This document shows, piece after piece, positions 6,516 through 33,030 of a DNA stretch of 53,949 nucleotides. The DNA is from an uncultured Gammaproteobacteria bacterium (GTDB taxonomy: Bacteria > Patescibacteriota > Patescibacteriia > UBA9934 > GWF2-40-263), in contig CAYHDY010000001.1 of assembly GCA_964355525.1 (NCBI GenBank), forward strand, positions 1-53,949. Direction: 5' to 3'. Below the pieces are notes generated by a model. It was not told the DNA's origin. It worked only from the letters and a program-made list of their open reading frames with translations, and searched no databases. The position numbers and the translations under genes are program-made. Positions within the stretch are counted from its first letter, which is position 1, and each line of letters starts with the position of its first letter.

Positions 6516-7220
6516 TCAAGGGAGTCGGGCGAGAAATGGTTCGATATTGATAAGATTTTTTGAAACGGAATCGGGATCAAGTTTATTGAGAATCAATGCT
6601 TCATCAACATGAAACGGTCCGATGGATGTCCGACGAAGTGTCTCAACATATCCGCCGGTTCCAAGTTTTACACCGAGATCGCGAGCGATAGATCGGATGT
6701 ATGTTCCCGAGGAACAGTGAATTGTAACTCCGATATGGGTGGGGTCTCCAGACCCCGCTTGATATTCAATCGAATAAATCGTCACATGCCGCGGCGCAAC
6801 CAACATCGGTTTCCCCTCGCGCGCAAGTTCATACAATTTTTTTCCTTGCACCTTGATCGCCGCATACGTCGGCGGCACCTGATCAATTTCTCCGACGAAT
6901 GATTTCAGTGCACTCGCCACTCCCTCCCCTGAGAGGGGGAGGGTCGGGGAGAGGGGTTGTGTAATCATTCCCGTCACATCATCCGTATCCGAACTCGCGC
7001 CCAACACAAACGTCGCTTCATATCGTTTATCAAGTCCAACCAGTTTCTGCATCTCTCGTGTCGCTTCACGCCCAACGCCAACCAAAAGCAATCCCGTTGC
7101 AAACGGATCGAGCGTGCCGGCGTGTCCGATGCGTTTCACACCCGTGATACGTCGCAATCGTGCGATCACATCGTGCGAGGTGATGCCGGCGGGTTTGTCG
7201 ATGAGAAGGAAACCGATCAT
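6516..7220 (-). CDS. truB: tRNA pseudouridine(55) synthase TruB
   Basis: GFLLIDKPAGITSHDV, HAGTLDPFATGLL and QVPPTYAAIKVQGKKLYELAREG. Start trimmed to MIGFLL. Contains a palindromic element at 6921-6956. Confidence 0.85.
   Translation of the reverse strand: MIGFLLIDKPAGITSHDVIARLRRITGVKRIGHAGTLDPFATGLLLVGVGREATREMQKLVGLDKRYEATFVLGASSDTDDVTGMITQPLSPTLPLSGEGVASALKSFVGEIDQVPPTYAAIKVQGKKLYELAREGKPMLVAPRHVTIYSIEYQAGSGDPTHIGVTIHCSSGTYIRSIARDLGVKLGTGGYVETLRRTSIGPFHVDEALILNKLDPDSVSKNLINIEPFLARLP
6921..6956. repeat. Palindromic element family C inside truB (translated on the minus strand as PLSPTLPLSGEG)
   Basis: tccctcccc-tgaga-gggggaggg-tcgg-ggagagggg. Same architecture as 24451-24486 and 32961-33030. 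Confidence 0.65.
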
Positions 7221-7227
7221 AACGTAT

Positions 7228-7253
7228 TCGTAGGGGCGGGTCTTGTGTCCGCC
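7228..7253. repeat. Hairpin element family D (tcgtaggggcggg-tcttgtgt-ccgccc)
   Basis: Shares the 5' motif TTCGTAGGGG plus a GC hairpin with 9855-9883. Confidence 0.5.
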
Positions 7254-7363
7254 CTTGTGAATGTGAATCGAATAATAATCCGATGATACGCGAGCGGGGA
7301 TCGTTTGACAAAAATGGGTGTATCGACAAGAATCATCATGCAACCAAATCATCTGGAGGTCAT

Positions 7364-16724: not shown

Positions 16725-18196
16725 TGGTATCGCCGTCAAAAACATTCGCCGCCCTCGCGGCGATGTTTTGTTTTGGTATTCTCCTCGGTCCATTGTTCAT
16801 TTCTGTTCCGACGAATGTGTACCTCGTTCTTCTGATCGTTTGCGTTTTAATCGTTTCGTTCTCCCCTCCTTCACAAGGAGGGGTAGATGGTGGTCGCGCA
16901 AAGTGGTTCGGTCTTTTTATCCTGATGTTCATCTTCGGATTATTTCGTTACGCACAAAGCGAGATCCCAAAAAATATTCCGACCGTGCGAGAACGCACCG
17001 GTTCGATGCTTCGCATTGAAGGAGATGTGATTGCCGAACCAGCCATCAGTTCGAAATCGCAACAAGTCACGATTGGTCATGTACGTGTTGTCGATGAGTC
17101 TCTTTTTGGAAACGTTCTCGTTTCCATTTCGAAAGATCAATCGATCGTGTACGGGGATCACCTCACGTTCGCGTGCTCGATGCAGATTCCTCGACCGTTC
17201 AGCGGATTTGCTTACGATCGATTTCTTCAAGCGAAAGGTGTCTTTGCTCTTTGTCGATTTCCGCACAATCTTGATCGTGTTGCGTCGAAACAGTTCTCAA
17301 TCGCCGGATCGATTCTTTCTTTCAAACATCAAATCATCACAAAAATGAAACAGATTTTTCCCGAACCGCACGCGTCGTTTCTCTTCGGTCTCGTGTTCGG
17401 CGGAAACATCGGACTCGATAAAGATATTCAAAATGATTTTGCGAAGACAGGAACATCGCACATTCTTGCCGCATCCGGTTTCAATGTTTCGTTGTTTACG
17501 TTCGTCTTCTTCGGCTGGGTGATTCAATATCTCGGTCGAAAGCGCGGAGCGATCGCGACACTCATTCTTCTCGGTGCATATGTGATCATGGCTGGTGCGA
17601 CGGCGGCTGTCGTTCGAGCTGCTGTGTTTGGAGTCGTACTGCTTACTGGTTCTGTGATCGGTCGGCGTGCACATGTTTTGAATGCATTATTGTTCACAGC
17701 ATCGCTCATGTTGTTTTACAATCCGCGTTGGCTTCTTGATGATGTTGGGTTTCAACTTTCTTTCGTTGCCTTCGCGGCAATCATGTTTGTCGCACCGCGA
17801 ATCGAAGAGCGACTCGAATTTATTCCTGATCGATTCGGAATCCGCGATGCACTCGCCGGTTCTCTCTCGGCGATTCTCCTCACGCTTCCGATCATGCTCT
17901 GGCAATTCGGTTCCGTCTCGCTCACCGCCCCGTTTGCAAACGTTTTCGTTTTGCCGCTCCTTCCGTTTCTGATGTTGTATACGATCGCGATTCTTCCGAT
18001 CGCATGGATCTCAACGATCGTCGGAACATACATTGCCCTTCCGTCACTCATCGGATCTAGATACGTTCTTACGATCATTGGGATTTTCGCGTCACCGACA
18101 TTCGCCTACGTTCCCGTTCCGTTTGCGCATGCCGCCGCGATCATCTCAGCGATCGCAATCATCATCGGATGCGTTGTCTTTTTTCGACGGTCGTGA
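16724..18196 (+). CDS. comEC: ComEC/Rec2-family competence channel protein (no metallo-beta-lactamase domain)
   Basis: Polytopic membrane protein. Competence-domain segment FAKTGTSHILAASGFNVS. TAATG overlap with ugd. Element at 16861-16896 lies in an early loop. Confidence 0.75.
   Translation: MVSPSKTFAALAAMFCFGILLGPLFISVPTNVYLVLLIVCVLIVSFSPPSQGGVDGGRAKWFGLFILMFIFGLFRYAQSEIPKNIPTVRERTGSMLRIEGDVIAEPAISSKSQQVTIGHVRVVDESLFGNVLVSISKDQSIVYGDHLTFACSMQIPRPFSGFAYDRFLQAKGVFALCRFPHNLDRVASKQFSIAGSILSFKHQIITKMKQIFPEPHASFLFGLVFGGNIGLDKDIQNDFAKTGTSHILAASGFNVSLFTFVFFGWVIQYLGRKRGAIATLILLGAYVIMAGATAAVVRAAVFGVVLLTGSVIGRRAHVLNALLFTASLMLFYNPRWLLDDVGFQLSFVAFAAIMFVAPRIEERLEFIPDRFGIRDALAGSLSAILLTLPIMLWQFGSVSLTAPFANVFVLPLLPFLMLYTIAILPIAWISTIVGTYIALPSLIGSRYVLTIIGIFASPTFAYVPVPFAHAAAIISAIAIIIGCVVFFRRS
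16861..16896. repeat. Palindromic element family C' inside comEC (translated as SPPSQGGVDGGR)
   Basis: ctcccctcctt-caca-aggagggg...ggtggtcg. Sibling at 18733-18769 with the same ggtggtcg tail. Confidence 0.7.
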
Positions 18197-18732: not shown

Positions 18733-18769
18733 CCCCCTCCTTCTTTGAGGAGGGAGCAGGGGGTGGTCG
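18733..18769. repeat. Palindromic element family C', intergenic copy
   Basis: ccccctcctt-cttt-gaggaggg-agcaggg-ggtggtcg. Confidence 0.7.
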
Positions 18770-24450: not shown

Positions 24451-24486
24451 TCCCTCCCCATGGACACAGGGGGAGTCGGAGGGGGA
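24451..24486. repeat. Palindromic element family C, intergenic copy
   Basis: tccctcccc-atggacaca-gggggag-tcgg-aggggga. Same architecture as 6921-6956. Confidence 0.65.
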
Positions 24487-24496
24487 CGTGAATCAT

Positions 24497-32960: not shown

Positions 32961-33030
32961 TCCTCCCTCTCCCTTCGAGGGAGAGGGTCGGCCTGCCCTC
33001 CGAAGCCTAGGCGAAGGCGGGGGAGAGGGG
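32961..33030. repeat. Palindromic element family C, composite copy with a nested insertion
   Basis: tcctccctctccc-ttcga-gggagaggg-tcgg-[cctgccctccgaagcctaggcgaaggcgg]-gggagagggg. Confidence 0.65.

Follow-up and report, generated by a model that had tools for sequence, protein, structure and literature searches.

A BoxC/PIT/TMECO-type repeat in place of native codons of truB in a Patescibacteria genome

The truB locus

In a 53,949-nucleotide (nt) contig of an uncultured Patescibacteria bacterium (GenBank assembly GCA_964355525.1, contig CAYHDY010000001.1; hereafter the window, which is contig C1 of the genome under study, G000), the gene of the tRNA pseudouridine-55 synthase TruB contains a short three-armed repeat, in frame, which is the subject of this work. 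The genome comprises 1.03 Mb in 71 contigs with 45.8% GC, and the relatives of its TruB are named Candidatus Uhrbacteria (Patescibacteria). The truB gene lies on the minus strand at 6516..7220, is present as a single copy in the genome and encodes 234 amino acids, among which the catalytic Asp38, invariant among the aligned TruB homologues, and all invariant residues are kept. The sole long open frame at this place extends over 6516-7352 on the minus strand; because the relatives begin with M-x-G-F-L-L-I-D-K-P, the real start of truB is at 7220. The protein on record (P0002, 278 amino acids) starts at 7352 and reads through an upstream REP, probably from a wrong start.

The encoded protein matches TruB_N (PF01509, E 5e-46) and the TruB of M. 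tuberculosis (1sgv, E 3.7e-52). Its AlphaFold model, with a pLDDT of 92.7 overall and 83 over residues 91-100, can be superimposed on the T. maritima TruB (2ab4/1r3e) with a TM-score of 0.91 and a root-mean-square deviation of 2.0 Å, with 234 columns for 234 residues; residues 88-97 are modelled as coil and 98-106 as a helix. This TruB, like relatives of ~220-290 residues, is devoid of the C-terminal PUA domain of the solved bacterial TruBs (300-310 residues), and a match to TruB_C_2 covers only the first 38 of its 66 positions.

The repeat spans positions 6921..6956, a 36-nt unit composed of a hairpin and a third G-rich arm, which reads TCCCTCCCC TGAGA GGGGGAGGG TCGG GGAGAGGGG. Its C-G-G orientation is that of the plus strand, the template strand of truB. 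The pyrimidine block of arm 1 (CCCTCCCCT, 6922..6930) is followed by a GAGA loop (6931-6934) and by the purine block of arm 2 (GGGGGAGGG, 6935..6943), which pairs with arm 1, whereas the purine block of arm 3 (GGGAGAGGG, 6947..6955) comes as a mirror-type third strand after a TCG linker (6944-6946). A perfect 8-bp inverted repeat, CCCTCCCC / GGGGAGGG at 6922-6929 / 6936-6943, occurs only once in the window, and 100 dinucleotide-preserving shuffles give an expectation of 0 matches. The reverse complement of the unit, CCC CTC TCC CCG ACC CTC CCC CTC TCA GGG GAG GGA, makes 12 codons for PLSPTLPLSGEG, residues 89-100 of TruB (...ITQPLSPTLPLSGEGVASALK... in the peptide across the element), a segment that, judging from the reading frame, would be translated.

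A preliminary description of this DNA had placed a palindromic element at 6921-6956 within truB, read on the minus strand between the catalytic TDT...G and the F.GEI.Q.PP motifs. Letters, frame and placement are all correct, the invariant T79-D80-D81-x-x-G84 and G110-x-x-x-Q114-x-P116 standing on either side. Its view of repeat DNA residing within a conserved enzyme also holds, and the segment concerned is the most length-variable one of TruB. The unit is a solo one, with no nuclease gene attached, but it has a twin: from 6920 to 6957 (cTCCC...GGGGt) it is identical at 38 of 38 positions to a copy in tsaD (G000:C39:8568), which is read in the same frame and gives the same peptide. An 11-nt inverted repeat, 91% complementary, surrounds the truB element (GAATGATTTCA / TGTAATCATTC, at 6897-6907 and 6960-6970) and may be due to chance.

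Assignment to the BoxC/PIT/TMECO family

Holder et al. (2015; PMC4666352) described the motif 5'-CCCTCNCCC N3-6 GGGNGAGGG N3 GGGNGAGGG-3', with one mismatched position allowed, which has been known over time as BoxC, then as PIT (potential intrastrand triplex) element and then as TMECO; the earlier BoxC/PIT work, as cited there, is that of Bergler, Bachellier, and Hoyne & Maher. The 37-nt TMECO is a class II (C-G-G) purine-motif intrastrand triplex, a class in which the third block mirrors the second and G·G:C, A·A:T or T·A:T triplets are possible (PMC4666352). According to the same work, there are 3610 copies in 262 proteobacterial genomes, and the 23 copies of E. coli K-12 are all intergenic. 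Neither promoter nor terminator activity was seen for TMECO, nor a triplex footprint in vivo, nor a gene for mobility linked to it; it was associated with local instability in the form of small deletions and changes in the flanks (PMC4666352).

By its sequence, the 36-nt stretch in truB belongs to this family. Positions 6922-6955 fit the published pattern with 1 substitution, and the genome holds 7 exact matches and 14 with at most 1 substitution. When hairpins with 8-nt pyrimidine-only arms, at most 1 mismatch and a loop of 3-12 were scanned for, 103 were obtained in the genome versus 1-4 in five third-order Markov simulated genomes. The preliminary description, which had proposed such a genome-wide count, spoke of a palindromic family C; it was right about the repeat, but it had not recognised the published family. 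The third block adjoins the hairpin in nearly all copies, and the several subfamilies differ in their three blocks, which nevertheless co-vary. The third block is a mirror of the second in 82 of the 103 copies, a single bad triplet being tolerated (and T allowed opposite A), and the mirror is better than a direct repeat in 78 copies versus 6; the truB copy has a mirror score of 7/8 positions, tied with the direct-repeat reading. Since ViennaRNA models hairpins only, the triplex of the 36-mer is a prediction from the sequence pattern.

The distribution of the repeat reaches far beyond this genome. Of 5426 complete E. coli genomes, 5091 contain copies that match the one in recQ (C11:402) at 37/38 positions, at a median of 8 places per genome, and no annotated feature lies under the best-listed matches, such as the one in the alx-sstT spacer. 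Identity between the truB copy and these E. coli loci amounts to 84-86% over 36 nt, with a weak E-value. Among the matches listed, the three-arm pattern is found in Pseudomonas, Xanthomonas, Enterobacter, Sphingomonas, Chloroflexota, Planctomycetota, Bacteroidota, Acidobacteriota, cyanobacteria and others. Among 301 genomes sampled evenly from Patescibacteria, 48 contain the hairpin (~0 in a reversed-pattern control); its presence is patchy, and the copies number up to 89. In other phyla, a crude open-frame census of 120 loci suggests that the copies are mostly intergenic, with some in-gene copies in low-GC Bacteroidota, high GC making this test unreliable. In the literature, we found no paper describing BoxC-type repeats inside genes or in Patescibacteria.

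Replacement of native codons

The preliminary description had interpreted the 12 residues as an insertion, expected to form a surface loop. Comparison with other TruBs gives a different picture. In the HMMER alignment to the solved enzymes, the segment shows a gap of 1 residue to M. tuberculosis and of 2 to E. coli. The eleven nearest of 120 homologues (79-69% identity) have P-V/I-S-T-x-H-L-T-x-E-Q opposite PLSPTLPLSGEG, that is, 11 residues versus 12; the native segment, present also in six of the seven same-genus genomes compared, reads PVSTEHLTEEQ or PISTxHLTKEQ, and the net change in our protein is +1 residue (+3 nt). Both flanks stay in register when the codons are aligned with those of the seven same-genus genomes and of the nearest relative (P0003, locus L214). 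Six of the seven same-genus relatives have no palindrome, and the seventh (L008) has a C-rich tract at the site without the G-rich arm. Blocks of 12 codons along truB are ~67-86% identical in DNA, except for two, with 18/36 and 14/36 identical positions, which contain the element together with a few adjoining codons at either end. A net change of +1 means that the full 36-nt unit is present and 33 native nt are gone, so that 11 native residues have been replaced. The truB element is thus a replacement of native codons by repeat DNA, and not a 12-residue insertion.

The structural model agrees with this, since 234 columns for 234 residues leave no extra loop. The surface loop expected in the preliminary description is seen in part: residues 88-97 are coil, but the last three element-coded residues, GEG, make the first turn of helix 98-106, and the element is therefore more than a loop. 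The same description had considered, as an outcome contrary to its own proposal, that palindrome-free relatives might have a homologous segment of conserved length; the length is indeed conserved, but homology is not, as the repeat copy with 38/38 identity is absent from those relatives. Excision at the RNA level, in the manner of an intron, was rejected because the element-coded residues fill the positions of 11 native residues and begin a helix.

The repeat peptide retains the native P..S......L-S/T-x-E pattern. Chance or convergence, by which a native TruB sequence would merely resemble the repeat, could draw on these P, S, L, S/T and E positions in common, and also on the native DNA of one same-genus relative, identical to the repeat at 19/33 positions as counted on the alignment. 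Such an account is opposed by the full match to the tsaD copy combined with a perfect 8-bp hairpin that shuffles do not predict. Moreover, the relatives have no palindrome, and the 72-nt mRNA stretch that folds at -25.9 kcal/mol at the truB element reaches only -4 to -14 kcal/mol in those of the same genus. The identity to dispersed copies effectively refutes chance or convergence, to which we attach almost no credence.

Repeated occupation of the same site

Across the 120 TruBs, indels are tolerated at two sites only, after residues 88-97 and after 157-158. A survey of the first site in 30 related genomes revealed three-arm elements at L001 and L009, where the C-rich strand is the sense one, and at L011 and L017, in the opposite orientation, all of them with different arm sequences. 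At least 20 of the 120 TruBs have repeat-type peptides there, including SLPLAKGELEGV, NHPQPLLEKEGG, PFEGEGRGG, RSFSEGG and others. In a tree of the 120 proteins built with the segment masked, our TruB falls in a supported 31-row clade (97/88), where one other row has an element according to a peptide-motif screen that missed some carriers elsewhere. The element carriers are scattered over the tree, requiring at least 5 changes, and P0047 represents a recent gain with respect to its near-identical sisters P0038 and P0041. Different subfamilies in both orientations at one truB site imply repeated colonisation, and these data indicate that the site has been colonised repeatedly and independently in other Uhrbacteria. 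A single ancient colonisation as the only story is ruled out by the two orientations, the several subfamilies, the scattered carriers and the one other carrier that the peptide-motif screen detected in the clade.

This survey also bears on a technical concern, namely that a repeat-driven mis-assembly of the metagenome bin, with its 71 contigs and ~100 repeat copies, placed the element in truB. Independent assemblies of other Uhrbacteria, however, bear such elements at the same site, and another 64 copies leave conserved genes in frame. Furthermore, the 36-nt repeat is shorter than any read, and both of its flanks are truB in the same frame, within a contig of 53.9 kb. We regard an artefact of this kind as very improbable.

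The second indel-tolerant site of this truB holds another, unrelated hairpin repeat (GGGGTCTCCAGACCCC, 6741..6756, plus strand), which corresponds to AGSGDPT, residues 155-161. It is one of 30 genomic copies of the family (a/t)ggg(t/c)GGGGTCCCCAGACCCCgc, and the nearest relatives share it (AGSWDPTH, AGSGDPTH), whereas other TruBs display the repeat-like LSNLSDLSNLS, SPNPSFAGGALRE or VPTRGTPTS at the second site. In the relatives P0112 and P0079, the two variable sites contain peptides that typify other hairpin repeats of Patescibacteria (ERLLRSARNDEV, RRPQANEAISTLRLLRPV), which implies that several repeat families use the same two TruB loops.

Copies within genes across the genome

Open frames of 120 codons or more extend across about 85% of the 103 copies, versus 93% of random 24-nt windows, so that copies are barely excluded from coding sequence. 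Every element-bearing frame was compared with G006, a same-genus genome of 1.2 Mb in 4 contigs that contains 56 hairpins. For 64 copies inside conserved genes, a single tblastn alignment to G006 spans both flanks, with a modal net difference of +13 residues. In codon alignments, 12 or 13 codons have been added cleanly, with well-conserved sequence on either side, in genes for GlyRS, a GT2 glycosyltransferase, MurC, a U5-methyltransferase, Dus, RecQ and MiaA, which, together with TsaD, LigA and ComEC, are the Pfam-confirmed hosts. In the frames used, the unit of 36-39 nt (12-13 codons) is free of stop codons and yields a peptide rich in Pro, Ser, Leu, Gly and Glu; each subfamily is nearly always in one frame, giving TPSSFEEGAGGGR, PSPFEGEGRGE, PPPLQGGVGGG or PLSPTLPLSGEG. 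Some sites are filled in both G000 and G006, by different subfamilies or orientations. Neither a target-site duplication nor a target motif was seen in the codon alignments of clean insertions, whose flanks, at 60-85% amino acid identity, are too diverged for the junctions to be fixed to the base.

Sister copies on the plus strand are also present in the window. One lies in frame in comEC (FSPPSQGGVDGG, 16862..16897) and another near the end of a 173-codon open frame (18733..18769). An intergenic, slightly degenerate copy (24451..24489) sits directly upstream of a start codon, and the composite copy at 32961..33030 has a second hairpin nested inside it, between arms 2 and 3. The preliminary description had likened the truB element to the copies at 24451-24486 and 32961-33030, and the three-arm layout is indeed found in both, the second with the extra nested hairpin. 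Composite copies with a GCCTGCCC(A/T)CCGAAGCCTTGGCGAAGGCGGG hairpin exactly between arms 2 and 3 occur as well at G000:C4:11546 and C19:17113, and the TruB relative P0107 has at the truB site a peptide, PARQPVHRSFSEGG, that matches this nested hairpin. Some genes have accumulated units: tsaD (G000:C39) has three in frame, which are two triplex motifs (DLDPSTLSKGGDGLSTEALAKVEGG, RPLSPTLPLSGEG) and a GTAG-REP (GQAQDLPLR), and the genes of MiaA, LigA and the U5-methyltransferase have two repeat units each. No Rfam family matched anywhere in the window.

The comEC copy has an orthologue in G006 (C2:152393-152539), which has the same loop and is identical at 35 of 37 nt, while the flanking protein is only ~63% identical; this DNA is either constrained or homogenised by gene conversion. 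In G000, its third arm has begun to decay. Conservation of this kind fits the proposal that the DNA structure is itself useful, a hairpin-, triplex- or G-quadruplex-prone tract serving as a signal in replication, transcription or recombination, or as a generator of local variation. In line with this, the three arms co-vary, with complementarity and mirror symmetry kept across subfamilies; the C-G-G strand is the sense one in 40 copies and antisense in 16; and the motif was tied to local instability by Holder et al. (PMC4666352). However, a conserved structure is equally expected if it is recognised by a mobilising enzyme, the hosts and positions have no common function, and presence is patchy among close relatives. 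The truB copy, moreover, is of the minority orientation, and no consistent replication-strand pattern emerged for the 56 copies on the four large G006 contigs when they were set against the cumulative GC skew. In E. coli, the motif gave no promoter, terminator or in vivo triplex signal (PMC4666352). Overall, a useful DNA structure seems an unlikely explanation for these repeats.

Candidate movers

The genome encodes two DUF559 genes (99 and 98 bits), located at G000:C15:10905-11219 and C9:13633-13953, both with triplex-motif units directly at their ends. The cassette at L216 1355-1873 (G000:C9:13487-14005) has the gene between two units in inverted orientation, with an additional unit 8 nt ahead of its start codon; its TGA stop codon falls in the loop of the downstream unit. 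Among 300 Patescibacteria, 33 have both the hairpin and DUF559, 14 the hairpin only, 29 DUF559 only and 224 neither (odds ratio 18; kin are not independent, so that the association is overstated by its p-value); DUF559 is present in 19 of the 21 genomes with at least 5 hairpins, versus 43 of the 279 others. DUF559-repeat pairs were located by their coordinates as adjacent in at least 6 unrelated genomes (G335, G307, G174, G135, G147 and G059). From this co-occurrence and adjacency, DUF559 genes are the likely mover of the triplex units, the link being an association and not a mechanism. With such Vsr-like cassettes our system shares the bracketing of both DUF559 genes by units, but the truB copy is solo and the activity of DUF559 on the repeats is putative.

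A more far-reaching and rather doubtful proposal is that BoxC-type units are the non-autonomous ends of DUF559-nuclease cassettes. They would spread through nuclease-triggered, copy-templated repair that either overwrites or adds sequence, rewriting the loops of essential enzymes at the same permissive sites in gene-dense Patescibacteria, and truB would have been caught in the act of overwriting.

There is a second candidate in the genome. In REP/REPIN-RAYT systems, the repeat flanks the RAYT gene and has a conserved GTAG head. Our genome resembles them in its short GC-rich hairpin repeats of many copies and in encoding a RAYT-like tyrosine transposase on C64 (NF047646, E 1.3e-11, below the curated cut-off). 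The triplex motif differs from REPs by its third arm and its lack of a GTAG head, and the RAYT-like gene is flanked by a different REP. RAYT was thus discarded as the mover of the triplex motif, given that the RAYT-like gene is paired with that GTAG-REP and the truB element has no such head. A REP of the GTAG type (GTAG GGGCGGG TCTTGTG TCCGCCC) lies on the plus strand at 7230..7254, 10 nt upstream of the truB start, and GTAG-headed REPs (GTAG GGGCGGG TCTTGTG CCCGCCC) amount to about 8 copies. On C64, a perfect 33-nt inverted pair of this same REP family (L031 1674-1706 and 1973-2005) is located upstream of the RAYT-like gene and in frame within it (RAGTRPAPT).

Origin of the truB copy

The stretch in truB is, in all probability though short of certainty, a genuine BoxC/PIT/TMECO unit that became fixed in frame with the loss of 33 native nt and is read through as a selfish or neutral passenger, and not a new functional module of TruB. 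In this scenario, a unit identical to the tsaD copy became fixed where a strand meets helix 98-106, at the site of TruB most tolerant of indels, and 33 nt of native sequence were lost while the enzyme kept its length (+1 residue) and fold. The repeat-coded L-S-x-E mimics the native L-T-x-E helix cap, and with no stop codon in the frames used the repeat would be read through. The most likely history is an insertion followed by trimming of the adjacent native codons, which fits the small flanking deletions around these motifs (PMC4666352), with copies presumably spread in trans by DUF559 (Vsr-like) nucleases.

Several facts weigh against this passenger scenario. The nearest relative is only 79% identical, so that there is no recent empty site and the order of events was not observed. 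Most other copies are clean additions, and replacement in truB would need a special history. Fourteen triplex-motif-positive genomes have no DUF559, 29 DUF559-positive ones do not have this triplex-motif subfamily, and kin are not independent. The assembly consists of 71 contigs, and population heterogeneity at the site is possible. Finally, the comEC copy has kept 35/37 nt across the genus with diverged flanks, where a purely neutral passenger predicts otherwise, a possible sign that the DNA itself is under constraint or undergoes gene conversion.

Alternatively, the truB copy could have arisen by overwriting in one step, with 33 nt swapped for a 36-nt patch from another copy, such as the tsaD twin. 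A DUF559 nick might have initiated the process, which would be break repair, template switching or short-patch gene conversion. The 38/38 identity to the tsaD copy suggests that the truB copy is young, yet the length has changed by just +3 nt. The four sites C18:9379, C5:3720, C26:10422 and C51:2256 differ in subfamily or orientation between G000 and G006 with a net change of ~0, which points to element-for-sequence swapping, and a second truB lineage, L011, also shows a net +1 with its element in the opposite orientation. On the other hand, the genome-wide mode is a clean addition of 13 codons, the usual event thus adding sequence; homology to the donor flanks is not visible beyond the 38 nt; and later remodelling would equally account for the raised divergence around the element, which covers ~5 upstream and 3 downstream codons. 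We keep one-step overwriting as a tentative second explanation, next to the preferred one of a passenger that was inserted and then trimmed.

Relation to known repeats and significance

With the E. coli elements, the units described here share a three-block class II C-G-G layout, a size of 36-37 nt, multiple copies, a patchy presence and changes in the flanks. They differ in that the E. coli K-12 copies are all intergenic, whereas here most copies are in genes and in frame, with coding sequence replaced in truB. Likewise, no linked mobility gene was reported in PMC4666352, whereas both DUF559 genes are flanked by repeats in our genome.

In-frame repeats as such are already known from Rickettsia and Bordetella. 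According to the review PMC3184786, the Rickettsia palindromic elements (RPEs; Ogata et al. 2000) and the Betaproteobacterial repeat element of Bordetella (Hot et al. 2011) are dispersed palindromic repeats found in frame in genes, including essential ones, and read through as an extra peptide. Here, truB and 64 other conserved genes remain in frame across the repeat, from which translation would follow. The RPEs, of ~105-146 bp, add a peptide module as described in that review, and the unit of 36-39 nt is set apart from them by this description. In addition, our unit comes from a pan-bacterial and apparently unrelated family and, in truB, it substitutes native residues. What is new is the location of most copies inside genes, the replacement in truB and the repeated occupation of the truB site.

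To our knowledge, BoxC-type repeats have been studied for three decades, since the 1990s, without a known mover, function or exact target rules. In this genome, an element 37/38 identical to E. coli copies resides mostly inside genes, including essential ones; it inserts as exact units of 12-13 codons, and it can stand in for native structural residues of an enzyme. For annotation, this means that PLSPTLPLSGEG, PSPFEGEGRGE and TPSSFEEGAGGGR in Patescibacteria proteins are repeat DNA and not lineage-specific protein motifs. Because coding sequence yields alignable filled and empty sites, insertion rules, the turnover of hot spots and the DUF559 link all become testable and, if the DUF559-cassette proposal is true, these filled and empty coding sites would supply the exact target rules of BoxC.

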